From Escherichia coli (GTDB taxonomy: Bacteria > Pseudomonadota > Gammaproteobacteria > Enterobacterales > Enterobacteriaceae): DNA of 64,000 bases. Numbering within the stretch: the stretch's first letter is position 1; every line of letters starts with the position of its first letter. Positions 7,111-57,947 of the stretch are shown in pieces. The stretch lies in assembly GCF_024700885.2 (NCBI RefSeq), contig NZ_CP117016.1; one strand, written 5' to 3'. Below the pieces are notes generated by a model. That model saw only the letters and a program-made list of their open reading frames with translations. It was not told the DNA's origin and did no database searches. A program made the translations under genes and the position numbers.

Positions 7111-9141
7111 ATGAAACTCGCCGCCTGTTTTCTGACACTCCTTCCTGGCTTCGCCGTTGCCGCCAGCTGGACTTCTCCGGGGTTTCCCGCCTTTAGCGAA
7201 CAGGGGACGGGAACATTTGTCAGCCACGCGCAGTTGCCCAAAGGTACGCGTCCACTAACGCTAAATTTTGACCAACAGTGCTGGCAGCCTGCGGATGCGA
7301 TAAAACTCAATCAGATGCTTTCCCTGCAACCTTGTAGCAACACGCCACCTCAATGGCGATTGTTCAGGGACGGCGAATATACGCTGCAACTAGACACCCG
7401 CTCCGGTACACCAACATTGATGATTTCCATCCAGAACGCCGTCGAACCGGTAGCAAGCCTGGTCCGTGAATGCCCGAAATGGGATGGATTACCGCTCACA
7501 CTGGATGTTAGCGCCACTTTTCCGGAGGGAGCCGCCGTCCGGGATTATTACAGCCAGCAAATTGCGATAGTGAAGAACGGTCAAATAACGTTACAACCCG
7601 CTGCCACCAGCAACGGTTTACTCCTGCTGGAACGGGCAGAAACTGACGCCTCCGCCCCTTTCGACTGGCATAACGCCACGGTTTACTTTGTGCTGACAGA
7701 TCGTTTCGAAAACGGCGATCCCAGTAATGACCAGAGTTACGGACGTCATAAAGACGGTATGGCAGAAATTGGCACTTTTCACGGCGGCGATTTACGCGGC
7801 CTGACCAACAAACTGGATTACCTCCAGCAGCTGGGCGTCAATGCTTTATGGATAAGTGCCCCATTTGAGCAAATTCACGGCTGGGTCGGCGGCGGTACAA
7901 AAGGTGATTTCCCGCATTATGCCTATCATGGTTATTACACCCAGGACTGGACGAACCTTGATGCCAATATGGGCAGCGAAGCCGATCTACGGACGCTGGT
8001 TGATAGCGCGCATCAGCGCGGTATTCGTATTCTCTTTGATGTCGTGATGAACCACACCGGCTATGCCACACTGGCGGATATGCAGGAGTATCAGTTTGGC
8101 GCGTTATATCTTTCTGGTGACGAAGTGAAAAAAACGTTGGGGGAACGCTGGAGCGACTGGAAACCTGCCGCCGGGCAAACCTGGCATAGCTTTAACGATT
8201 ACATTAATTTCAGCGACAAAACAGGCTGGGATAAATGGTGGGGAAAAAACTGGATCAGAACCGATATCGGCGATTACGACAATCCGGGATTTGACGATCT
8301 CACTATGTCGCTGGCCTTTTTGCCGGATATCAAAACCGAATCAACTACCGCTTCAGGTCTGCCGGTGTTCTATAAAAACAAAACGAATACCCACGCTAAA
8401 GTCATCGACGGTTTTACCCCTCGCGATTACTTAACCCACTGGTTAAGTCAGTGGGTTCGCGACTATGGGATTGATGGTTTTCGGGTCGATACCGCCAAAC
8501 ATGTTGAGTTGCCCGCCTGGCAGCAACTGAAAACCGAAGCCAGCGCCGCACTTCGCGAATGGAAAAAAGCTAACCCCGACAAAACATTAGATGACAAACC
8601 GTTCTGGATGACCGGTGAAGCCTGGGGCCACGGCGTGATGCAAAGTGACTACTATCGCCACGGCTTCGATGCGATGATCAATTTCGATTATCAGGAGCAG
8701 GCGGCTAAAGCAGTCGATTGTCTGGCGCAGATGGATACTACCTGGCAGAAAATGGCGGAGAAATTGCAGGATTTCAACGTGTTGAGCTACCTCTCGTCGC
8801 ATGATACCCGCCTGTTCCGTGAAGGGGGCGACAAAGCAGCAGAGTTATTATTATTAGCGCCAGGCGCGGTACAAATCTTTTATGGTGATGAATCCTCGCG
8901 TCCGTTCGGCCCCACCGGTTCGGATCCGCTGCAAGGTACGCGTTCGGATATGAACTGGCAGGATGTTAGCGGTAAATCTGCCGCCAGCGTCGCGCACTGG
9001 CAGAAAATCAGCCAGTTCCGCGCCCGCCATCCCGCAATTGGCGAGGGCAAACAAACGACACTTTCGCTGAAGCAGGGCTACGGCTTTGTTCGTGAGCATG
9101 GCGACGATAAAGTGCTGGTCATCTGGGCTGGGCAACAGTGA
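7111..9141 (+). CDS. malS: Periplasmic alpha-amylase
   Basis: 676 aa with signal peptide and GH13 motifs (GIRILFDVVMNHTG, GFRVDTAKHV); synteny. Confidence 0.93.
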   Translation: MKLAACFLTLLPGFAVAASWTSPGFPAFSEQGTGTFVSHAQLPKGTRPLTLNFDQQCWQPADAIKLNQMLSLQPCSNTPPQWRLFRDGEYTLQLDTRSGTPTLMISIQNAVEPVASLVRECPKWDGLPLTLDVSATFPEGAAVRDYYSQQIAIVKNGQITLQPAATSNGLLLLERAETDASAPFDWHNATVYFVLTDRFENGDPSNDQSYGRHKDGMAEIGTFHGGDLRGLTNKLDYLQQLGVNALWISAPFEQIHGWVGGGTKGDFPHYAYHGYYTQDWTNLDANMGSEADLRTLVDSAHQRGIRILFDVVMNHTGYATLADMQEYQFGALYLSGDEVKKTLGERWSDWKPAAGQTWHSFNDYINFSDKTGWDKWWGKNWIRTDIGDYDNPGFDDLTMSLAFLPDIKTESTTASGLPVFYKNKTNTHAKVIDGFTPRDYLTHWLSQWVRDYGIDGFRVDTAKHVELPAWQQLKTEASAALREWKKANPDKTLDDKPFWMTGEAWGHGVMQSDYYRHGFDAMINFDYQEQAAKAVDCLAQMDTTWQKMAEKLQDFNVLSYLSSHDTRLFREGGDKAAELLLLAPGAVQIFYGDESSRPFGPTGSDPLQGTRSDMNWQDVSGKSAASVAHWQKISQFRARHPAIGEGKQTTLSLKQGYGFVREHGDDKVLVIWAGQQ

Positions 9142-34367: not shown

Positions 34368-37300
34368 ATGAGCGGAAAACCGGCGGCGCGTCAGGGCGAC
34401 ATGACGCAGTATGGCGGTAGCATTGTTCAGGGTTCAGCCGGGGTACGTATTGGTGCCCCCACCGGCGTGGCCTGTTCGGTGTGCCCCGGCGGGGTGACGT
34501 CCGGCCATCCGGTCAATCCGCTGCTCGGTGCGAAGGTCCTTCCCGGCGAAACCGACCTTGCCCTGCCCGGCCCGCTGCCGTTCATCCTCTCCCGCACCTA
34601 CAGCAGTTACCGGACAAAAACGCCCGCGCCGGTGGGGAGCCTCGGCCCCGGCTGGAAAATGCCCGCGGATATCCGCTTACAGCTGCGCGATAACACACTG
34701 ATACTCAGTGATAACGGCGGCAGGAGCCTGTATTTTGAGCACCTGTTTCCCGGTGAGGACGGTTACAGCCGCAGCGAGTCACTCTGGCTGGTGCGCGGCG
34801 GCGTGGCGAAACTGGATGAAGGTCACCGGCTGGCCGCACTCTGGCAGGCACTGCCGGAAGAGCTTCGCCTGAGTCCGCATCGTTATCTGGCGACGAACAG
34901 TCCGCAGGGGCCGTGGTGGGTACTCGGCTGGTGTGAGCAGGTGCCGGAGGCGGATGAGGTGCTGCCCGCGCCGCTGCCGCCGTACCGGGTACTGACCGGG
35001 CTGGTGGACCGCTTCGGGCGCACACAGACGTTTCACCGTGAGGCTGGCGGCGAAATCACCGGCGTGACGGATGGCGCAGGCCGTCACTTCCGGCTGGTAC
35101 TGACCACGCAGGCGCAGCGGGCAGAAGAAGCCCGGCAGCAGGCCATTTCCGGCGGGACGGAACCGTCCGCTTTTCCTGATACCCTGCCGGGTTACACCGA
35201 ATATGGCCGGGACAACGGCATCCGTCTGTCTGCCGTGTGGCTGACACACGACCCGGAATATCCGGACAACCTGCCAGCCGCGCCGCTGGTACGCTATGGC
35301 TGGACGCCGCGTGGCGAACTGGCGGCGGTGTATGACCGCAGCAATACACAGGTGCGCAGCTTTACTTACGATGATAAATACCGGGGCCGGATGGTGGCGC
35401 ACCGTCACACGGGCCGACCGGAAATCCGTTACCGTTACGACAGTGACGGGCGGGTGACAGAACAGCTAAACCCGGCGGGCTTAAGCTACACGTATCAGTA
35501 TGAGAAAGACCGCATCACCATCACCGACAGCCTGGACCGCCGTGAAGTCCTGCACACGCAGGGCGAAGGCGGGCTGAAGCGGGTGGTGAAAAAGGAACAC
35601 GCGGACGGCAGCGTCATGCAGAGTCAGTTTGACGCGGTGGGCAGGCTTAAGGCACAGACGGATGCCGCAGGCCGGACGACTGAGTACAGCCCGGATGTGG
35701 TGACGGGACTCATCACGCGCATCACCACACCGGATGGCAGGGCATCGGCATTTTACTATAACCACCACAACCAGTTAACGTCAGCCACCGGGACTGACGG
35801 GCTGGAGTTGCGCCGGGAATATGATGAATCCGGCCGTCTGATTCAGGAAACCGCACACAACGGCGATATCACCCGCTACCGTTATGATAATCCACACAGT
35901 GACTTACCCTGCGCAACGGAAGATGCCACCGGCAGCCGGAAAACCATGACATGGAGCCGTTACGGTCAGTTGCTGACCGTCACTGACTGTTCCGGTTATG
36001 TAACCCGTTATGACCATGACCGTTTTGGTCAGGTGACGGCGGTGCACCGCGAGGAAGGGCTGAGTCAGTACCGCGCATACGACAGCCGTGGACAGTTAAT
36101 TGCGGTGAAAGACACGCAGGGCCATGAAACGCGGTATGAATACAACGCCGCCGGTGACCTGACCGCCGTCATTGCCCCGGACGGCAGCAGAAACGGGACA
36201 CAGTACGATGCGTGGGGAAAGGCCATCCGTACCACGCAGGGCGGTCTGACGCGCAGTATGGAATACGATGCTGCCGGACGGGTCATCCGCCTGACCAGTG
36301 AAAACGGCAGCCACACCACCTTCCGTTACGATGTACTTGACCGGCTGATACAGGAAACCGGCTTTGACGGCCGCACACAGCGTTATCACCACGACCTGAC
36401 CGGCAAACTTATCCGCAGCGAGGATGAGGGGCTGGTCACCCACTGGCACTATGACGAAGCAGACCGCATCACGCACCGCACCGTGAAGGGTGAACCGGCA
36501 GAGCAGTGGCAGTATGATGAACGCGGCTGGCTGACACAAATCAGCCATCTCAGCGAAGGCCACCGGGTGACGGTGCATTACGGGTATGATGAGAAAGGCC
36601 GCCTGACCGGTGAGCGCCAGACGGTGCATCACCCGCAGACGGAAGCACTGCTCTGGCAGCATGAAACCAGACACGCTTACAACGCGCAGGGACTGGCGAA
36701 CCGCTGTATACCGGACAGCCTGCCCGCCGTGGAATGGCTGACTTACGGCAGCGGCTGGCTGGCAGGCATGAAACTCGGCGACACACCGCTGGTGGAGTAT
36801 ACCCGCGACCGCCTGCACCGGGAAACGCTGCGCAGCTTCGGCCGTTATGAACTCACCACCGCTTATACCTCTGCCGGGCAGTTACAGAGCCAGCACCTGA
36901 ACAGCCTGCAGTATGACCGCGATTACACCTGGAACGACAACGGCGAACTCATCCGCATCAGCAGCCCGCGACAGACCCGGAGTTACAGCTACAGCGACTC
37001 CGGCAGGCTGACCGGCGTCCACACCACCACCTCAAATCTGGATATCCGCATCCCGTATGCCACGGACCCGGCAGGCAACCGCCTGCCCGACCCGGAGCTG
37101 CACCCGGACATCACCCTCAGCATGTGGCCGGATAACCGTATCGCCCGTGACGCGCACTATCTTTACCGGTATGACCGTCACGGCAGACTGACGGAGAAAA
37201 CCGACCTCATCCCGGAAGGGGTTATCCGCACGGACGATGAGCGGACTCACCAGTACCATTACGACAGTCAGCACCGGCTGGTGCACTACACGCGGACACA

Positions 37301-38555
37301 ATATGCAGAGCCGCTGGTCGAAAGTCGCTATCTTTACGACCCGCTGGGCCGCAGGGTGGCAAAACGGGTATGGCGGCGTGAACGGGACCTGACGGGCTGG
37401 ATGTCGCTGTCACGGAAACCGGAAGTGACCTGGTACGGCTGGGACGGCGACCGGCTGACCACGATACAGAACGACAGAACCCGCATCCAGACGGTTTATC
37501 AGCCGGGGAGCTTCACGCCACTCATCAGAGTTGAAACCGCCACCGGTGAGCTGGCGAAAACGCAGCGCCGCAGCCTGGCGGATGCGCTTCAGCAGTCCGG
37601 CGGCGAAGACGGTGGCAGTGTGGTGTTCCCGCCGGTGCTGGTGCAGATGCTCGACCGGCTGGAAAGTGAAATCCTGGCTGACCGGGTGAGTGAGGAAAGC
37701 CGCCGCTGGCTGGCATCGTGCGGCCTGACGGTGGAGCAGATACAAAACCAGATGGACCCGGTGTACACGCCGGCGCGAAAAATCCACCTGTACCACTGCG
37801 ACCATCGCGGCCTGCCGCTGGCGCTTGTCAGCACGGAAGGGGCAACAGAATGGTGCGCAGAATACGATGAATGGGGCAACCTGCTGAATGAAGAGAACCC
37901 GCACCAGCTGCAGCAGCTCATCCGCCTGCCGGGTCAGCAGTATGATGAGGAGTCAGGCCTGTATTACAACCGCCACCGCTATTATGACCCGCTGCAGGGG
38001 CGGTATATCACTCAGGATCCGATTGGGCTGAAGGGGGGATGGAATTTTTATCAGTATCCGTTAAATCCGGTTCAGTATATAGATTCAATGGGACTGGCAT
38101 CTAAATATGGACACTTAAATAATGGCGGATATGGAGCGAGACCCAACAAACCGCCTACGCCCGATCCAAGTAAGTTGCCAGACATAGCGAAACAATTAAG
38201 ACTGCCATATCCTATTGACCAGGCCAGTAGTGCGCCTAATGTTTTCAAAACATTCTTCAGAGCATTAAGTCCTTACGATTACACACTGTATTGCAGGAAG
38301 TGGGTAAAACCCAATCTGACTTGTACGCCGCAGGATGATCCCCAGTATCCAGGGATGGAGACAAAGACAGCAAGTGATTACCTGCCACAGACAACTTGGC
38401 CAACAACTCAATTACCACCAGGATATACTTGTGCAGAACCCTATTTATTCCCAGACATTAATAAACCCGATGGGCCAGCAACAGCAGGGATAGATGATTT
38501 GGGTGAAATTTTAGCTAAAATGAAACAGAGAACATCGAGAGGAATAAGAAAATGA
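34368..38555 (+). CDS. rhsA: Rhs-family polymorphic toxin (RhsA locus) with a divergent C-terminal toxin domain
   Basis: 1395 aa; N-terminal PAAR-like region, long YD-repeat core (…YRYD…, …YDxxGR…), the core-end motif …[31 protein letters not shown]…, then an AT-rich, compositionally distinct C-terminal tip of about 155 aa. Confidence 0.9.
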
Positions 38556-39121
38556 AAAGAGCTTTGTTCTTTTTGCTGATGATATTCGTTAGTTTTGGTG
38601 TTATAGCTAATTGCGAAACACAAGCTAAAGATCAAGATTGCTTTACCATTTTCACTAAGGGTACTATTTTTTCCGCGTTTCCTGTCTTAAATAATAAAAC
38701 CATGTGGAGATGGTATCAGAATGAGGACATAGGTGAGTATTATTGGCAAACAGAGCTTGGTATATGTAAAAATAACAAATTCACACCAAGCGGGGCGAGA
38801 CTCTTAATTCTCGTCGGATCACTACGCCTTAATGAAAATCATGCAACCAAAGGAACGTTGCAGGAGTTGCTAAATACAGCAGAAAAAACGGCGTTTCTCG
38901 GCGATCGGTTTAGAAGTTATATAAGAGCGGGTATCTATCAAAAAAAGAGCAGTGATCCAGCTCAGTTGTTGGCAGTCCTTGATAATTCAATCATGGTTAA
39001 ATATTTTAAAGATGAGAAGCCAACTTATGCTCGAATGACAGCACATCTCCCGAACAAAGATGAGTCTTACGAATGTTTAACAAAAGTACAGCATGAACTG
39101 CTTCGTAGTGAAGAAAAATAA
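38552..39121 (+). CDS. Putative cognate immunity protein of the rhsA C-terminal toxin
   Basis: 189 aa; start overlaps the rhsA stop (ATGA); AT-rich; N-terminal hydrophobic leader ([19 protein letters not shown]) suggests export. Role inferred from position only. Confidence 0.5.
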
Positions 39122-39289: not shown

Positions 39290-39637
39290 ATGAGAAACTC
39301 ACTAATATTACTTATTATGATATTGTTTACAATATCACACTCAGTATTTGGAAAAGAAAATTCAGCGGAAATTTTAGTAAATAGTCGTGAAATGGCTTTG
39401 GAATTATCATATGTTTATATTAAATATATATACGGGAAAGAAAAAGCAGAATTTCAGAAACCATATAGTATTACAGATGACAATAATTGTTGGAAAATCG
39501 AGGGAAAACAACCGAAGACGTTAGGAGGAAATTTTACAATACTAATAGCGAAAAAAGATGGGCAAGCGTTGGATGTAATACACAAAATAATCCACTGTTC
39601 AGACGATTCAAATATTTTACCAAGGTGTGTTTCGTAA
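39290..39637 (+). CDS. Small secreted immunity-like protein
   Basis: 115 aa; signal-peptide-like N-terminus; paralogous to the frameshifted ORF at 41240-41507. Confidence 0.45.
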   Translation: MRNSLILLIMILFTISHSVFGKENSAEILVNSREMALELSYVYIKYIYGKEKAEFQKPYSITDDNNCWKIEGKQPKTLGGNFTILIAKKDGQALDVIHKIIHCSDDSNILPRCVS

Positions 39638-40639: not shown

Positions 40640-40710
40640 GACGCAAACCGAATAACCTGCCGCTGGCGCTTATCAGCACGTAAGGGACAACAGCGTAGTA
40701 CGTAGAATAA
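40640..40710 (+). pseudogene. Degraded Rhs core remnant 2
   Basis: cctgccgctggcgcttatcagcacgtaagggacaacag… matches the rhsA core segment cctgccgctggcgcttgtcagcacggaaggggcaacag… at about 37810. Confidence 0.45.
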
Positions 40711-40792
40711 TCCTACCCACGTAGTATGGACACAGGCCTAAGCGAGGTTCTGGTTTTCAAATTTTTCGGGAGTTAGATGATTGGAGGAACAG

Positions 40793-41158
40793 ATGATAAG
40801 AATCGCATTTTTAATAACCAATAAATTTCTTGAGATAGATAGTACCACTCTTGCTGGATATGATTTTAGCGGGATGAATCTACATCGTGCCACCCTCAAT
40901 GGTTATTGTCTTGATGGGGCGAAATTTGAAAAAACTCATTTAAGAAATGTAATGATTCAACATACATCAACTAGAAATGCTGTCTTTCGCAATGCGGCTC
41001 TGATGAATGCTATTCTGAATAACTCAGATTTCACTGGAAGTGATTGTAGTAATTCAAGGTCAATAGGTGAAAATTTTAAAGCAATAGATAATCATGGGAA
41101 AGATATAATAAATGGAAAAGGATTGCCTAATGTTTGCAAAATACATGACAACGTATAA
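40793..41158 (+). CDS. Pentapeptide-repeat protein
   Basis: About 121 aa from MIRIAF (ggagga RBS); tandem pentapeptide-like repeats (…ATLNGYCLDGAKFEKTHLRNVMIQHTSTRNAVFRNAALMNAILNNSDFTGSDCSNS…). Confidence 0.5.
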   Translation: MIRIAFLITNKFLEIDSTTLAGYDFSGMNLHRATLNGYCLDGAKFEKTHLRNVMIQHTSTRNAVFRNAALMNAILNNSDFTGSDCSNSRSIGENFKAIDNHGKDIINGKGLPNVCKIHDNV

Positions 41159-41239: not shown

Positions 41240-41507
41240 ATGCGCAAGTATGAAAGTGAGGGGAAATACACCGTTAGAAATTTGGTCAAAAATAAAGCTA
41301 TAGCATTGGAATTAGCTGAGATGTATGTTAAAAATCGTTATGGACATGATGCCGAAGAAGAAAAAAAAACCATACAAAATCATGGAATTACCAACAAGTT
41401 GGATTGTTGAAGGCACCATTGAATCAGACCAAATTGCTGGTAGGGTTTTTATTATAGAAATAGGCAAAAATGACGGGAGAATTCTAAATTTTGGCCACGG
41501 AAAATAA
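41240..41507 (+). pseudogene. Frameshifted paralog of the 39290-39637 immunity-like gene
   Basis: Frame 1 from ATG 41240 reads MRKYESEGKYTVRNLVKNKAIALELAEMYVKNRYGHDAEEEKK, then an A9 homopolymer (41361-41369) shifts the frame into the track ORF 41325-41507 (…PYKIMELPTSWIVEGT…GKNDGRILNFGHGK). Removing one A restores an intact reading frame of about 88 codons. Confidence 0.5.
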
Positions 41508-41611
41508 GTATGTAAGGATAAACAAACATCGTGTGTGCTGATGGCAGAGTAGGTGGAGGACTCCAGACAGTCAAACGATAGAAAAAGATAGTCTTTATGG
41601 AGGTTCCTGCA

Positions 41612-42454
41612 ATGTCGAATACATACCAGAAAAGAAAGGCAAGTAAAGAGTATGGTTTATACAATCAATGTAAGAAACTAAATGATGATGAATTATTTCG
41701 CTTACTTGATAATCGCAATTCATTGAAAAGGATTTCATCTGCCAGAGTATTGCAGCTAAGAGGTGGGCAAGACGCTGTTAGATTGGCAATTGAATTCTGC
41801 GCTGACAAAAATTATATCCGTAGAGATATAGGAGCATTTATACTCGGGCAAATAAAAGTTTGCAAAAAATGCGAAGATAGCGTTTTTAATATTTTAAAAA
41901 AGATGGCACTGAATGATAAAAGTGCTTGCGTTCGAGCTACAGCAATCGAGTCAACTGCTCAGCGATGCAAGAAAAACCCAATTTATTCACCTAAAATAGT
42001 AGAACAATCTCAAATTACTGCTTTTGATAAATCGGCTAATGTCAGACGTGCTACGGCATTTGCTATTTCTGTTATCAATGATAAAGAAACAATTCCACTA
42101 TTGATTAATCTGTTAAAAGATCCAAATGGAGATGTCAGAAACTGGGCCGCATTTGCAATAAATATCAATAAATATGATAATAGTGATATTAGGGATTATT
42201 TTGTGGAGATGCTTCAGGATAAAAATGAGGAAGTCCGTATTGAAGCAATAATCGGACTTTCCTACAGAAAAGATAAAAGGGTTTTATCTGTTTTATGCGA
42301 TGAGTTAAAAAAAAATACTGTTTATGATGATATCATTGAAGCTGCGGGTGAATTAGGTGATAAAACGCTACTTCCTGTTTTAGATACTATGTTGTACAAG
42401 TTTGATGACAATGAAATTATAACTTCCGTTATTGATAAGCTGAAGCGTTCATAG
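41612..42454 (+). CDS. yibA: HEAT-repeat protein YibA
   Basis: 280 aa from MSNTYQKRKASKEYGLYNQ…; recognised as the K-12 rhsA-adjacent YibA. Track start is 5 codons upstream. Confidence 0.85.
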   Translation: MSNTYQKRKASKEYGLYNQCKKLNDDELFRLLDNRNSLKRISSARVLQLRGGQDAVRLAIEFCADKNYIRRDIGAFILGQIKVCKKCEDSVFNILKKMALNDKSACVRATAIESTAQRCKKNPIYSPKIVEQSQITAFDKSANVRRATAFAISVINDKETIPLLINLLKDPNGDVRNWAAFAININKYDNSDIRDYFVEMLQDKNEEVRIEAIIGLSYRKDKRVLSVLCDELKKNTVYDDIIEAAGELGDKTLLPVLDTMLYKFDDNEIITSVIDKLKRS

Positions 42455-42495
42455 CGTGAGTTGCCTATGCACAGTGAGGTATTCCCGCCGGCACG

Positions 42496-43305
42496 GTGCA
42501 GATGCTCGACCGGCTGGAAAGTGAAATCCTGGCTGACCGGGTGAGTGAGGAAAGCCGACGCTGGCTGGCATCGTGCGGCCTGACGGTGGCGCAGATGCAA
42601 AACCAGATGGACCCGGTGTACACGCCGGCGCGAAAAATCCACCTGTACCACTGCGACCATCGCGGCCTGCCGCTGGTGCTTATCAGCACGGAAGGGGCAA
42701 CAGAATGGTGCGCAGAATACGATGAGTGGGGCAACCTGCTGAATGAAGAGAACCCGCACCAGCTGCAGGGGCGGTATATCACTCAGGATCCGATTGGACT
42801 GAAGGGGGGATGGAATTTTTATCAGTATCCGTTGAATCCGATAACTGATATTGACCCGTTGGGATTAGCGACCTGTTTATACAGCATAACTTTAGGTATG
42901 CTTTCATGCGTTTCAGATACGCCAAGTGATGATAATTCTTATGGTGTGCTTACTATTTCAGTCGCCTCTGGTAATAATGGTAATAATATGCAATGTAAAA
43001 ATAATCCTGGTTGTACACACTTACAAAATAGAGGCCCAATACCTCCAGGGGTATGGAGCTGGAATGTTAATGGTCCTGGAGCAACTAATAGAAAACCTAA
43101 TGGTATACGTTTAGTACCGTCAGCAAATACAGAAACGTATAATCGTGATGGATTTTTAACACATAGTTGTTTAAACGCTTTTGGTCCATCTTTAGGACCT
43201 CGATTCTGTTCCGAGGGTTGTATAACTGGTTCATCTAATGACATGCAAAAATTAAATGAGCTAATATTTTCAGAGCCAGATAGCACATTAACAGTGACGG
43301 ACTAG
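42496..43305 (+). CDS. yibJ: Orphan Rhs C-terminal fragment with Cys/Gly-rich toxin-like tip
   Basis: 269-aa ORF; its first about 100 aa match the end of the rhsA core (…[16 protein letters not shown]…[18 protein letters not shown]), with a 28-codon deletion spanning [12 protein letters not shown]. Symbol from position. Confidence 0.65.
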
Positions 43306-43309
43306 AAAT

Positions 43310-43705
43310 ATGGCAAGGTTATTAACAATTGTGCTTTTTTTCTCTATTTCTGCGAATGCAGTTACTGTAAACCAATTTCAGAGAGAGTTGGATTTGGCAG
43401 ACAAGGCAATATTATGGGCACTAATATCAGCCAGTACCCAAGAGGGACGAAAAGCGTGTTCACTTAGCTATTTTTCATGTAAAGCCGCAGAGGCTGAACT
43501 CGGACTGGCATATATGGCTGCTAATGATAACAAGGCATTTCTCACATCCTTATCTAGAATAATGATGTACAAAATAGATGCTGGACTTTCCGAATCCTAT
43601 ACATGCTATTTATTAAGCAAGGGAAAGATCATAAGACCATATCTGAAGAATCTAAATCCACACCAACTTGTCGCTGATTGCATTGAAACTGTAAATAAAA
43701 GATAA
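43310..43705 (+). CDS. yibG: Small secreted protein, putative immunity partner of the yibJ fragment
   Basis: 131 aa; signal-peptide-like N-terminus (MARLLTIVLFFSISANA); 4 bp after yibJ. Symbol assigned by position only. Confidence 0.4.
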   Translation: MARLLTIVLFFSISANAVTVNQFQRELDLADKAILWALISASTQEGRKACSLSYFSCKAAEAELGLAYMAANDNKAFLTSLSRIMMYKIDAGLSESYTCYLLSKGKIIRPYLKNLNPHQLVADCIETVNKR

Positions 43706-44283
43706 AAATAAAAAAATCATTGATATAGATTCAGTTAATATTTGCAATGATAATAAAAATATAAATTGGAGAGTTAATAGTACTATTGTAGCCATTGATG
43801 ATTCTATAAAATGCATCGATGAATAATAACTTAATTATATTTAAAAATATATTAATGACTCACTCTCCAGGAGTTTTTTAACTTAGTGTTATAATGAATA
43901 CGATAATTAAAAGTGAAGAGAAAAATAGTTGTATACATATATTACATGAACCTACATTGTGATCTATAAATTAAATATTTTTAAATGTGACTGTCATCCT
44001 TCAGATAATAAAGCCATCATCGCAATAGATGGAAAAGCACTCCTGCTCTTTTTTGATTAGAGCCGTGGCAGAGGAACAACTCATATCATCATTGCGATCT
44101 CGACAATGTATGGTCTGATCCTTCGGCAGATCAAGACGGATAAAAAATCCAATGAGTTCACACTCATCCCGAACTTCTTAACATAATGGATATTAACGAA
44201 AAATCATCGCAGCCAATGAAGTAATATGCAAAAATAATTAGTCCTTACAGGGAGCAAAGTTCCATAATCTCCCCCTTCCCTAC

Positions 44284-52217: not shown

Positions 52218-55200
52218 ATGAACAAAATTTTTAAAGTTATCTGGAATCCAGCGACGGGCAGTTACAGCGTTGCCAGCGAAACGGCGAAGAGCCGTGGCAA
52301 AAAGAGCGGACGCAGTAAGCTGTTAATTTCTGCGCTGGTTGCGGGTGGGCTGTTGTCGTCGTTTGGGGCAAGTGCAGATAATTACACTGGGCAGCCAACT
52401 GATTATGGCGATGGCTCAGCAGGTGACGGCTGGGTTGCTATCGGTAAAGGTTCAAAAGCAAATACCTTTATAAACACAAGTGGCGCGAGTACAGCTTTAG
52501 GTTATGACGCGATAGCCGAAGGTGAGTACAGCTCTGCCATCGGGTCAAAAACCCTCGCAAGTGGTGGAGCATCCATGGCGTTTGGGGTTAGTGCAAAAGC
52601 ATTAGGTGACAGAAGTGTCGCGCTGGGTGCATCTTCAACAGCAACTGGCGATCGTTCGATGGCTCTTGGTCGTTACGCAAAGACGAACGGTTTTACATCT
52701 CTTGCTGTTGGGGACTCCTCCCTTGCCGATGGTGAAAAAACTATTGCGTTAGGAAATACGGCTAAAGCTTACGAAATTATGAGCATCGCCCTCGGTGATA
52801 ATGCCAATGCGTCAAAAGAATATTCAATGGCGCTGGGTGCAAGTAGCGCCGCATCTGCGGCTAACGCGATTGCAGTAGGCCGCAACAGTGCTGCTGCTGG
52901 CGTAGACAGCCTCGCATTAGGTAGACAATCACTTGCCAGTGCAGCGAACGCCATTACGATTGGTGCTGAAAGCGAAGCCGCTGAAAATGCGACGGCTGTA
53001 GGTACTAAAGCGAAAGCTCGAGGCAAAAACAGTCTTGCATTAGGTGCAAACAGTGATTCAACAGGTGAAGGTTCTGTTGCCCTGGGATATACAGCAGCGG
53101 CTGCTGGCGCAAGTGCTCTTGCCTTGGGGCAAAATGCGCAAGCATCAAACACAAACACCATTGCATTAGGCCAGAACAGCAGCGCATCAACCGCAAATGC
53201 TATTGCGATCGGTACAGGAAGTTCTGCGGTTGGATCAAACAGTCTTGCATTGGGAAGTTCATCTTCTGCAGGAGGGAATAATTCCGTCGCGATTGGTGCA
53301 AGCTCTACTGCAGATGAAGACAACGTTGTGTCGGTCGGCTCAGGGTCAGCACAGCGTCGCATCGTCAATATGGCGGCAGGTGAAATCTCAACAGACAGTA
53401 AAGAAGCCATTAACGGTTCACAACTTTACGCCATTAGTCGGTCGGTAGCAGACAGGCTGGGAGGCGGAGCAGATGTAGCCAGTAACGGAACAATAAAGGG
53501 GATGTCTTATAAACTGAAGAAAAGGGATTTCAATAACGTTGGTGAAGCACTCCAGTACCTTGACAATGAAACTCTGCACTGGGACTCAGCTAAAGGGGCT
53601 TTCAGCGCCAGTTATATTGTTAAAAATGCTGATGGAACGATTGCCAGTACCGTAGCAGAAAACAAAATCATCAATGTAAAAGATGGCGATATTTCGGCTA
53701 CCAGTAAAGACGCCATTAACGGCTCTCAGCTGAAAACCACCAACGATAACGTAGCGACCAACACCACCAATATCACCAACCTGACTGATTCCGTTGGCGA
53801 CCTTAAAGACGATGCCCTGCTGTGGAATGGCACCGCATTCAGCGCCGCTCACGGTACCGATGCCACCAGCAAAATCACCAACGTCAAAGACGGTGACCTG
53901 ACGGCTGGCAGCACTGACGCGGTAAACGGCTCTCAGCTCAAAACCACTAACGATGCCGTGGCAGCCAACACCACCAATATCGCCACGAACACCACCAACA
54001 TCACCAACCTGACTGACGCTGTTGACAGTCTCGGTGATGACTCTCTGCTGTGGAACGCTACTGCGGGGGCATTCAGTGCCGCGCACGGTACTGATGCCAC
54101 CAGCAAAATCACTAACGTCAAAGACGGTGACCTGACGGCTGGCAGCACTGACGCGGTTAACGGCTCTCAGCTCAAAACCACTAACGATGCCGTGGCAGCC
54201 AACACCACCAATATCGCCACGAACACCACCAACATCACCAACCTGACTGACGCTGTTGACAGTCTCGGTGATGACTCTCTGCTGTGGAATGATGCAGCGA
54301 AAGCATTCAGCGCCGCGCACGGTACTGATGCCACCAGCAAAATCACCAACGTCAAAGACGGTGACCTGACGGCTGGCAGCACTGACGCGGTTAACGGCTC
54401 TCAGCTAAAAACCACTAACGATGCCGTGACAGCCAACACCACCAATATCGCCACTAACACCACCAACATCACCAACCTGACTGACGCTGTTGACAGTCTC
54501 GGTGATGACTCTCTGCTGTGGAACGCTACTGCGGGGGCATTCAGCGCCGCGCACGGTACTGATGCCACCAGCAAAATCACTAACGTCAAAGACGGTGACC
54601 TGACGGCTGGCAGCACTGACGCGGTTAACGGCTCTCAGCTCAAAACCACTAACGATGCTGTGGCAGCCAACACCACCAATATCGCCACGAACACCACCAA
54701 CATCACCAACCTGACTGACGCTGTTGACAGTCTCGGTGACGATTCCCTGCTGTGGAACGCTACGGCGGGGGCATTCAGTGCCGCACACGGTACTGATGCC
54801 ACCAGCAAAATCACTAACGTCAAAGACGGTGACCTGACGGCTGGCAGCACTGACGCGGTTAACGGCTCTCAGCTCAAAACCACCAACGATAATGTGGCAA
54901 CCAACACCACCAATATCGCCACGAATACCACCAACATCACCAACCTGACTGACGCTGTTGACAGTCTCGGTGACGATTCCCTGCTGTGGAACGCTACGGC
55001 GGGGGCATTCAGTGCCGCACACTGTACTGATGCCACCAGCAAAATCACTAACGTCAAAGACGGTGACCTGACGGCTGGCAGCACTGACGCGGTTAACGGC
55101 TCTCAGCTCAAAACCACCAACGATAATGTGGCAACCAACACCACCAATATCGCCACGAATACCACCAACATCACCAACCTGACTGACGCTGTTGACAGTC

Positions 55201-57947
55201 TCGGTGATGACTCTCTGCTGTGGAACGCTACGGCGGGTGCATTCAGTGCCAAACACGGCACCAACGGTACTGACAGCAAAATCACCAACTTACTGGCAGG
55301 CACTGTATCCTCTGATAGCACTGACGCCATTAATGGCTCACAACTTTATGGCTTAGCTGATTCATTTACGTCATACCTTGGCGGTGGTGCTGATATCAGT
55401 GATGCGGGTGTATTAACCGGGCCAACCTACACTATTGGTGGTACTGACTACAATAACGTCGGTGATGCTCTGGCTGCCATTAACACGTCATTTAGCACAT
55501 CACTCGGTGATGCCCTACTCTGGGATGCGACCGCCAAGGGCGGTGACGGTGCGTTTAGCGCCGGTCGCGGAAAAGATAACACGGCCAGCATCATTACTAA
55601 TGTTGCAGACGGTGCAATTTCCTCTACCAGCAGCGACGCTATTAACGGCTCACAGCTCTATGACACCAGCAAGTACATTGCCGATACTCTGGGTGGTGAC
55701 GCAGAAGTCAATGCTGACGGCACAATCACCGCACCGACTTATGCCATCGCTGGCGGCAGTTACAGCAACGTCGGTGACGCGCTGGAAGCGATCGATACCA
55801 CGCTGGATGACGCTCTGTTGTGGGATGCAACAGCCAATGATGGCAATGGTGCATTTAGCGCCGCTCACGGAAAAGATAAAACAGCCAGTGTAATCACTAA
55901 CGTCGCTAACGGTGCAATCTCTGCCACCAGCAGCGATGCCATTAACGGTTCACAACTGTATACCACCAACAAGTACATTGCCGATGCCCTGGGTGGTGAC
56001 GCAGAAGTTAACGCTGATGGTTCTATTACTGCGCCGACTTACACCATTGCAAATGCCGAGTACAACAACGTCGGTGACGCCCTGGATGCGCTCGACGATA
56101 ACGCTCTGCTGTGGGATGCAACAGCCAATGACGGCGCAGGTGCCTACAACGCCAGCCATGACGGCAAGGCCAGCATCATCACAAATGTTGCTGATGGTAA
56201 CATTGGCGAAGGCAGCACTGACGCCATCAACGGTTCTCAGCTGTTTAACACCAATATGCTGATCCAGCAGAACAGCGAAATCATCAATCAGCTTGCCGGT
56301 AACACCAGCGAAACCTACATCGAAGATAACGGTGCGGGCATTAACTATGTACGTACCAACGACAACGGCTTAGCGTTCAACGATGCCAGCGCTTCAGGTA
56401 TTGGCGCTACGGCTGTGGGTTATAACGCTGTCGCCTCAGGCGAAAGCAGCGTAGCCATTGGTCAAGGTAGCAGCAGCTCCGTTGATACGGGTATCGCCCT
56501 GGGTAGCAGTTCCGTTTCCAGCCGTGTAATAGTTAAAGGTTCTCGTGACACCAGCGTGTCGGAAGAAGGTGTTGTGATTGGTTATGACACCACGGATGGC
56601 GAACTACTTGGTGCGTTGTCTATTGGTGATGACGGTAAATATCGTCAAATCATCAACGTAGCCGATGGTTCCGAAGCCCATGACGCCGTTACGGTTCGCC
56701 AGTTGCAAAATGCCATTGGTGCAGTCGCTACCACGCCGACCAAATACTTCCACGCTAACTCAACAGCTGAAGATTCACTGGCTGTCGGTGAAGACTCGCT
56801 GGCAATGGGTGCGAAAACCATTGTTAATGGTGATGCAGGGATCGGTATTGGCCTGAACACTCTGGTGTTAACTGATGCAATCAACGGTATTGCTATCGGT
56901 AGCAACGCGAGTGCAAATCATGCAAACAGTATTGCGATGGGTAGTGGTTCCCAGACCACCCGTGGTGCGCAGACTGACTACACCGCCTACAACATGGACG
57001 CGCCGCAGAATTCTGTCGGTGAATTCTCTGTCGGCAGCGAAGACGGTCAACGTCAGATCACCAACGTCGCGGCTGGTTCAGCGGATACCGATGCGGTTAA
57101 CGTAGGTCAGTTGAAAGTCACTGATGAGCGCGTAGCGCAAAATACCCAGAGCATTACTAACCTGAACAATCAGGTGACGAATCTGGATACTCGCGTTACC
57201 AATATCGAAAACGGCATTGGCGATATCGTAACCACCGGTAGCACCAAATACTTCAAGACCAACACCGATGGCGTAGATGCCAACGCGCAGGGTAAAGATA
57301 GTGTTGCGATTGGTTCTGGTTCCATTGCTGCCGCTGACAACAGCGTCGCGCTGGGTACCGGTTCCGTGGCCAACGAAGAAAACACCATCTCTGTGGGTTC
57401 TTCTACCAACCAGCGTCGTATCACCAACGTTGCTGCAGGTGTTAATGCCACCGATGCGGTTAACGTTTCGCAGCTGAAGTCTTCTGAGGCAGGCGGCGTT
57501 CGTTACGACACCAAAGCTGATGGTTCTATAGACTACAGCAACATCACTCTCGGTGGTGGTAATGGCGGTACGACTCGCATCAACAACGTCTCCGCTGGCG
57601 TCAACAACAACGACGCAGTGAACTATGCGCAGCTGAAGCAAAGCGTGCAGGAAACGAAGCAATATACCGATCAGCGGATGGTTGAGATGGATAACAAACT
57701 GTCCAAAACCGAAAGCAAGTTGAGCGGTGGTATCGCTTCTGCAATGGCAATGACCGGTCTGCCGCAGGCTTACACTCCAGGTGCCAGCATGGCCTCTATT
57801 GGTGGCGGTACTTACAATGGTGAATCGGCTGTTGCTTTAGGTGTGTCGATGGTGAGCGCCAATGGTCGTTGGGTCTACAAATTACAAGGTAGTACCAATA
57901 GCCAGGGTGAATACTCCGCCGCGCTCGGTGCCGGTATTCAGTGGTAA
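52218..57947 (+). CDS. upaG: Trimeric autotransporter adhesin (UpaG/EhaG-like)
   Basis: 1909 aa; extended signal peptide ([21 protein letters not shown]…); many head/neck repeats with INGSQL and NVAAG motifs; C-terminal YadA-type anchor ending …[13 protein letters not shown]. Symbol from recalled location beside lldP; exact allele not determinable. Confidence 0.85.
53845..55260 (+). repeat. In-frame 234-bp tandem repeat array (about 6 units) inside the adhesin gene
   Basis: The 60-mer acgtcaaagacggtgacctgacggctggcagcactgacgcggt(a/t)aacggctctcagctca recurs at 53881, 54115, 54349, 54583, 54817 and 55051, a spacing of exactly 234 bp; each unit encodes a 78-aa repeat. Confidence 0.9.

Follow-up and report, generated by a model that had tools for sequence, protein, structure and literature searches.

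A YbfO-type Rhs toxin tip and a predicted exported YbfC-family immunity protein at the rhsA locus of an Escherichia coli genome

The stretch of DNA considered here, called the window, comprises 64,000 nucleotides of Escherichia coli contig NZ_CP117016.1 (assembly GCF_024700885.2). It holds a complete Rhs gene whose C-terminal tip, together with the small gene that follows it, forms a predicted toxin-immunity pair that corresponds with very high confidence, from sequence comparison, to the ybfO-ybfC module already known in E. coli K-12. The Rhs gene is assigned to the rhsA locus because selB, selA and yibF, all on the minus strand, sit upstream of it. The features on which the argument relies are as follows.

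34368..38555, plus strand: full-length clade I Rhs gene of 1395 amino acids (aa), from the list of open reading frames (ORFs), at the rhsA locus
34503..34736, plus strand: DUF6531 domain, aa 46-123 (Pfam PF20148, E = 4.4e-18)
38016..38096, plus strand: aspartyl-autoprotease signature DPIGL-(17 aa)-DSMGL, aa 1217-1243, read from the sequence
38097..38552, plus strand: YbfO-type toxin tip, aa 1244-1395, 152 aa, 149 of 152 residues identical to the K-12 YbfO tip
38537..38543, plus strand: Shine-Dalgarno-like GAGAGGA within the 3′ end of the toxin gene, 8 nucleotides (nt) before the next ATG, read from the sequence
38552..39121, plus strand: ybfC-family immunity gene, 189 aa, 174 of 189 residues (92%) identical to K-12 YbfC over the whole length
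38552..38608, plus strand: predicted Sec signal peptide, aa 1-19, with signal peptidase I cutting before N20 (heuristic anatomy, 22 family members)

The core of the Rhs protein is conventional. Residues 1-1243 match the RHS_core equivalog of NCBIfam with 2620 bits against a cut-off of 2000, and the same search places Rhs_assc_core at aa 1166-1243 and finds nine YD-repeats; 1193 of these 1243 residues are identical in K-12 RhsA. A PAAR_motif match at aa 2-20 is partial and weak (Pfam, E = 0.24). An identical locus, annotated in the same way, exists in E. coli MLI114, where the RefSeq product is 'RHS element core protein'. The core ends in two motifs, DPIGL (aa 1217-1221) and DSMGL (aa 1239-1243), with S replacing P in the second. 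The mapped autocleavage site of Photorhabdus Rhs1 comes after a pair of DPLGL motifs spaced by 17 residues, its toxin beginning right behind the second (PMC8636562). By analogy, autocleavage is predicted after L1243 and would release a 152-aa toxin starting at A1244 (nt 38097). The GC content is 0.616 for the core, lower for the tip (0.436) and lower still for the downstream ORF (0.375), and GC3 drops from 0.72 to 0.34. On sequence grounds, the shell, the paired motifs and the AT-richer tip with its small cognate gene identify the product as a putative Rhs (YD-repeat) polymorphic toxin.

A preliminary description of this DNA had noted a polymorphic tip that continues the rhsA frame in AT-rich sequence, and both the fall in GC content and the canonical autocleavage motifs ahead of it bear this out. 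Its length of about 155 codons depends on the starting point: 161 codons follow in frame the motif quoted there (aa 1217-1234, nt 38016-38069) and 152 follow DSMGL. The claim that the tip departs from that of K-12 rhsA is also correct, the two having no similarity beyond a best local match of 12/33. The epithet 'divergent' thus suits the comparison with the K-12 rhsA tip and fails against K-12 ybfO, with which the identity is nearly complete. The start of the downstream ORF in an ATGA overlap was likewise read correctly: at 38552-38555, in the context ...aaaATGAaaag, the ATG at 38552 overlaps the rhs stop codon TGA at 38553-38555. Together with the GAGAGGA element, this overlap suggests translational coupling of the immunity gene to the toxin. 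The cluster to which the immunity protein is 92% identical bears the database name 'protein YbfC'.

In K-12, ybfO (b0703) and ybfC (b0704) belong to the rhsC locus and resemble the window pair in gene order, in the 4-nt ATGA overlap and in the sequences of both products. The K-12 tip, however, is carried by an orphan fragment of 477 aa, annotated as a pseudogene, downstream of rhsC-ybfB, whereas in the window it is in frame on a complete rhs gene at rhsA. The genes beyond ybfC differ as well, with an NTF2-type immunity gene and a DUF6258 gene in the window and ybfQ/ybfL in K-12. Another counterpart is found in E. coli O157:H7, where RhsC (z0847) bears the same tip on a full-length Rhs protein, followed by ybfC (the putative immunity gene z0853), an NTF2 immunity gene and DUF6258. 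That locus lies beside kdp-ybfA, the window locus beside selA-yibF, and at the DNA level the alleles share about 96% identity. When the O157 RhsC tip and the gene after it were analysed in silico, no significant toxin or immunity motif was reported (PMC7216683). In O157:H7 strain 380-94 the tip is again on a full-length rhsC adjoining kdp-ybfA. The ybfC gene behind this intact rhsC (8001-8571 of locus L004) is frameshifted by a T9 run in its signal-peptide codons, where the window has T5; this could be a true inactivation, slippage-prone variation or an assembly error.

The module is widespread. Among 5426 complete E. coli genomes, megablast finds the tip and immunity gene in 3613, about two thirds (67%); the immunity gene followed by the next NTF2-type immunity gene occurs in 844, and the entire arrangement from tip to yibA in 272 (about 5%), as alleles at least 99% identical. 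The rhs genes of Enterobacteriaceae are known to join a GC-rich core to an AT-rich tip, to carry the same tips at different clade I loci and to be followed by dissociated core and tip fragments (PMC2935791). The best explanation of the sequence data is that rhsA gained a pair of the ybfO/ybfC type by recombination within the conserved core, a known kind of event. The window differs in one respect from the survey of Jackson et al. 2009, in which the clade I loci of E. coli are generally free of dissociated tips (PMC2935791), since it contains several orphan pieces. The preliminary description overrated the novelty of the system, missing the identity with ybfO/ybfC, the presence of the module in two thirds of E. 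coli genomes and the fact that tip exchange is well described. The understanding of Rhs elements is left unchanged by what amounts to textbook exchange of tips between rhs loci.

One explanation of the module is that of a decaying relic, in which the tip is no longer toxic, the ORF no longer protective, and both are carried along by recombination of the rhs core. In most genomes, including K-12, the tip indeed resides on an orphan fragment that bears a pseudogene annotation; ybfC is frameshifted in the O157:H7 genome mentioned above, and the remainder of the window locus is rich in frameshifted orphans. In the window, by contrast, both ORFs are intact and the tip is in frame with a complete Rhs gene. 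With the K-12 copies as reference, the tip has an omega of 0.10 and the immunity gene one of 0.26, compared with 0.09 for the adjacent core. Furthermore, the pair is kept at 24-63% identity across orders of Proteobacteria, from Enterobacteriaceae to Delftia, and rhsC and ybfC are among the genes more expressed in Shiga toxin-producing E. coli (STEC) associated with haemolytic-uraemic syndrome, where ybfC is listed as a 'putative secreted protein' (PMC6033998). The relic explanation appears very unlikely. Both ORFs are genuine genes and not chance ORFs, as judged from purifying selection relative to the K-12 copies and from the conservation of the pair as far as Delftia.

The pairing itself was followed at the DNA level in four distant loci, those of Delftia tsuruhatensis (L005), L006, L007 and L009. 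In each, a YbfC homologue of 185-197 aa with a hydrophobic leader lies directly 3′ of the tip, so that the association is found in the window, K-12, O157 and all four distant loci. The window immunity protein and the Delftia ORF share 28% identity (BLASTP, E = 7e-23). Across 15 pairs drawn from six loci, toxin and immunity identities correlate with r = 0.90, the toxin being the more conserved in every pair. Close homologues of the tip (66-98% identical) occur in Escherichia, Salmonella and Phytobacter, and immunity homologues (58-98% identical) in these same genera as well as in Citrobacter, Kluyvera and Pseudocitrobacter. The proposal that the downstream ORF behaves as the cognate immunity gene is thus supported by sequence: the tip has a YbfC homologue immediately behind it in the window, K-12 and the four distant loci, and the identities co-vary.

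The leader of the immunity protein, which the preliminary description had recognized as hydrophobic, was examined with a transparent heuristic applied to 22 family members, and its output is a prediction only. In the window protein, two basic residues precede an uncharged stretch of 16 residues (best 10-residue Kyte-Doolittle mean, KD10, of 3.22), a V-I-A site and then NCE. All 22 leaders share this n-h-c layout: the basic residues number 1-2, the uncharged stretch runs to 10-18 residues (KD10 = 2.4-3.5), and a small-x-small site for signal peptidase I lies at residue 19. The cysteine that comes right after the leader raises the question of a lipoprotein, acylated on Cys21 and anchored in the membrane, in which case the toxin would act at the membrane surface. 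This cysteine is present in 18/18 enterobacterial members, and a loose lipobox (IAAC, MASC or ISAC) can be read in 7/22 members. At position -1, however, the window protein has N (VIAN-C) and K-12 YbfC has D (VIAD-C), neither of which fits the lipobox [LVI][ASTVI][GAS]C, and the Delftia, L006 and L007 proteins lack a cysteine at this position. Two cysteines of the family alignment, C30 and C175, never vary, and C21 occurs solely together with C72, as in a disulfide pair: the two are both present in the enterobacterial clade and L009 and both absent from L005, L006 and L007. This joint presence or absence argues for two disulfides rather than an acylated Cys21, and a lipoprotein is regarded as unlikely.

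AlphaFold2 (AF2) was run on the tip linked to the mature immunity protein, with a block alignment of 42 rows and no interface metrics. In this fused model the immunity part is an all-beta sandwich with predicted local distance difference test (pLDDT) values mostly of 79-95, and the entry nearest to it in AlphaFold DB bears the annotation 'Periplasmic protein'. Uncharacterized YbfC-like beta-sandwich relatives (12-28% identity, target TM-score 0.52-0.69) are also found through AFDB50 in Planctomycetes (Roseiconus, Stieleria) and Lentisphaera. Pfam contains nothing that matches the immunity protein or any member of its family alignment, and ybfC has been described as lacking functional annotation (PMC11954222). 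Since all 22 leaders have n-h-c anatomy, the cysteines are paired and co-vary, and the model is a beta-sandwich, a location outside the cytoplasm is a supported prediction for the immunity protein and, by implication, for the target of the toxin.

The tip itself has a Pro-rich variable linker (about residues 1-45), after which come a conserved core of roughly 105 aa and, at the C-terminus, a basic R-K. The signature shared by 24 members of the toxin family begins with SPYDY (58-62), Y65-C66, W69, C76, P85-G86, D94 and P97, and continues with P107, G109, C112, P115, F118, A130, D134 and the terminal R-K. The three cysteines C66, C76 and C112 are invariant in the family alignments, and R151-K152 is kept in 22-23 of 23 members. 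The family is small: its profile, searched against 1.84 billion representative proteins, matched just 28, of which the credible ones are all Rhs C-termini, with identities reaching down to about 28-50%. One of the matches, P0097, a 2084-aa non-Rhs repeat protein, was discarded as a chance match of its 'NNYTLYVRN' repeats to an 11-residue stretch of the tip. A likeness of an 11-residue stretch to the colicin M motif DxYDx5HR was discarded too, the first Asp and the His being absent and R67 not conserved.

The preliminary description could name no motif in the tip, and systematic searches agree with it. Pfam has no match for the tip or for any of the 17 family members submitted to it, and NCBIfam, PADLOC and PHROGs have none for the tip or the immunity protein. 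Sequence and profile searches of the PDB with four alignments, covering the toxin and immunity families, returned only noise (E at least 0.15). Modelled alone by AF2 from 10 sequences, the tip reached a pLDDT of 45 and the model was unusable. In the fused model, residues 61-120 form a helix and three strands that bear the three cysteines (pLDDT 61-82), and a further helix, poorly conserved in sequence, spans residues 133-148.

Several periplasmic type VI secretion system (T6SS) effectors, namely the Tae amidases, Tge muramidases, Tle lipases and Tlde1, are paired with Sec-exported immunity proteins (Tai, Tgi, Tli and Tldi1, respectively). The window pair shares their logic, a signal peptide on the immunity protein, from which toxin and immunity protein are expected to meet in the periplasm, and differs from them in showing no sequence or profile similarity to these systems. 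For a papain-like or NlpC-P60 amidase of the Tae kind, the tip family offers neither a conserved Cys-His pair nor a Pfam match among the 17 members. No His is conserved across the toxin-family alignments and no GxSxG occurs in the tip sequence. Comparison by hhalign of the family profile with the Tlde1-type (YkuD-like L,D-transpeptidase) tip at 42898-43302 of the window gave a probability of 0.06% with E = 0.74. Nor does the tip have a hydrophobic or glycine-zipper helix that could span a membrane, the maximum 19-residue Kyte-Doolittle mean (KD19) being 0.14. The absence of a conserved His, of GxSxG, of a hydrophobic segment and of Tlde1 similarity leaves the known classes of periplasmic effectors, and pore formation, without support.

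Another proposal is that of a non-enzymatic membrane disruptor, in which the C-terminal helix and the basic R-K tail would attack the inner membrane from its outer face. The helix predicted at 133-148 and the near-invariant R151-K152 are in its favour; the lack of any hydrophobic stretch, the poor sequence conservation of the helix and the soluble, beta-sandwich appearance of the immunity protein are not. Immunity to pore-formers is moreover usually conferred by an integral membrane protein. Such a disruptor is judged quite unlikely.

Most characterized Rhs tips act in the cytoplasm as nucleases or ADP-ribosyltransferases, and a cytoplasmic toxin has to be considered here as well, YbfC then blocking entry from the periplasmic side or being no immunity protein at all. 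The succession of a helix, three strands and a C-terminal helix is the order found in many small cytoplasmic toxins, and one homologue is recorded, by automatic naming, as 'putative deoxyribonuclease RhsC'. Yet none of the 17 members searched matches a nuclease or other family, and no His is conserved among them. The YbfC homologue, predicted to be exported, is the sole conserved neighbour of the tip, no cytoplasmic immunity candidate being found between the two at any locus, and the Rhs protein has no transmembrane segment that would take it across the inner membrane (maximum KD19 = 0.98). A cytoplasmic site of action is accordingly rated as most improbable.

The reading preferred here, considered probable from sequence comparison and modelling, is that of a periplasm-acting and probably disulfide-dependent Rhs toxin with a soluble periplasmic immunity protein. 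The 152-aa tip would be held inside the Rhs cage and released by the cut after DSMGL, at L1243. It would then enter the periplasm of a neighbouring cell, presumably through a T6SS, and fold there with the help of disulfides formed by the three invariant cysteines. Its target is expected to be exposed to the periplasm; since the tip is hydrophilic, an attack on the cell envelope, whether enzymatic or by binding, is favoured, at low confidence, over pore formation. The immunity product would be exported by the Sec pathway, cut at 19|20 and folded into a soluble, disulfide-bonded beta-sandwich that binds the incoming toxin in the periplasm and neutralizes it. As to delivery, the main Rhs gene of L005 stands next to and behind a VgrG gene, and the genes close by in L009 include VgrG, DUF2169 and a PAAR-like gene; these neighbours point to a link between the toxin family and type VI secretion.

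Several observations weigh against a periplasmic toxin delivered and neutralized in this way. Upstream of the window rhs gene lies yibF, and downstream of it come immunity and orphan genes; no vgrG or other T6SS gene was seen beside it (window ORFs elsewhere were listed, not identified), and K-12, which is not known to have a T6SS, retains the ybfO/ybfC module. The frameshifted ybfC of strain 380-94 fits a toxin that is harmless in the cytoplasm of its producer, and fits equally well a silent system. The toxin model is only moderately confident, with the remainder of the tip below a pLDDT of 50, and fold searches with it gave no match. Three cysteines make an odd number, and metal binding or a nucleophile is possible instead of disulfides. 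The few invariant polar residues (D61, D94, D134 and S58) are thin for an enzyme. Literature searches for ybfO, ybfC, peptide motifs and locus tags turned up no functional study in the library consulted.

A broader and more doubtful proposal would make the YbfO-type tip the founder of a class of antibacterial toxins not described before (small, dependent on cysteines and active in the periplasm), whose fold and target would be unlike those of amidase, muramidase, lipase, L,D-transpeptidase and pore-forming effectors, with ybfC as a species-wide immunity gene against it. Independently of this proposal, two K-12 genes of unassigned function, the pseudogene ybfO and ybfC, are now linked to a live configuration in which the toxin is part of a complete Rhs protein. 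This configuration is present at rhsA in the roughly 5% of complete E. coli genomes that share the window arrangement, and at rhsC in others such as O157:H7. The resulting prediction is a toxin at work in the periplasm, with YbfC as the exported antidote to it. With the module in so large a share of E. coli genomes, most conspecifics are probably immune already, which bears on the purpose of the weapon. Naive toxicity tests in the usual K-12 and B laboratory hosts, which have ybfC themselves, could give falsely negative results.

The region between the immunity gene and yibA contains further genes and gene remnants. At 39290-39637, on the plus strand, a 115-aa NTF2-fold immunity protein (YbbC/YhhH-like) is encoded with a hydrophobic N-terminal leader and no toxin gene ahead of it; this leader and the missing toxin gene make it a likely orphan exported immunity gene. 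A second, frameshifted copy of an NTF2-fold immunity gene lies at about 41240-41507. At 40656-40709 lies a relic of 54 nt from the 3′ end of the rhs core, 85% identical to 37811-37864 and followed at 40781-41158 (plus strand) by a pentapeptide-repeat ORF, split into two pseudogene pieces in RefSeq; relic and ORF (40656-41158) are possibly the remains of another displaced tip.

The yibA gene (41597-42454, plus strand; HEAT-repeat, NCBIfam PRK09687, 455 bits) lies about 3 kb downstream here, whereas in K-12 it comes immediately after rhsA. The main rhs gene lacks the K-12 rhsA tip, which was not seen either among the annotated features from that gene to yibA, and yibA therefore looks like the orphan of an earlier tip. 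It is followed at 42495-43305 (plus strand) by an orphan Rhs C-terminal fragment that opens with a repeat of the core 3′ end (42495-42869, 98% and 86% identical to 37640-38098). The tip of this ORF (42496..43305) is described in RefSeq as 'tlde1 domain-containing', and a frameshifted Imm57 immunity gene follows at 43310-43826. Promoter and terminator scans gave results at chance level, and Rfam had no match. Farther along, at 52218-57947 on the plus strand, an ORF of 1909 aa has partial matches to models of the trimeric autotransporter adhesins Vomp, EmaA, Ata, YadA and BimA.

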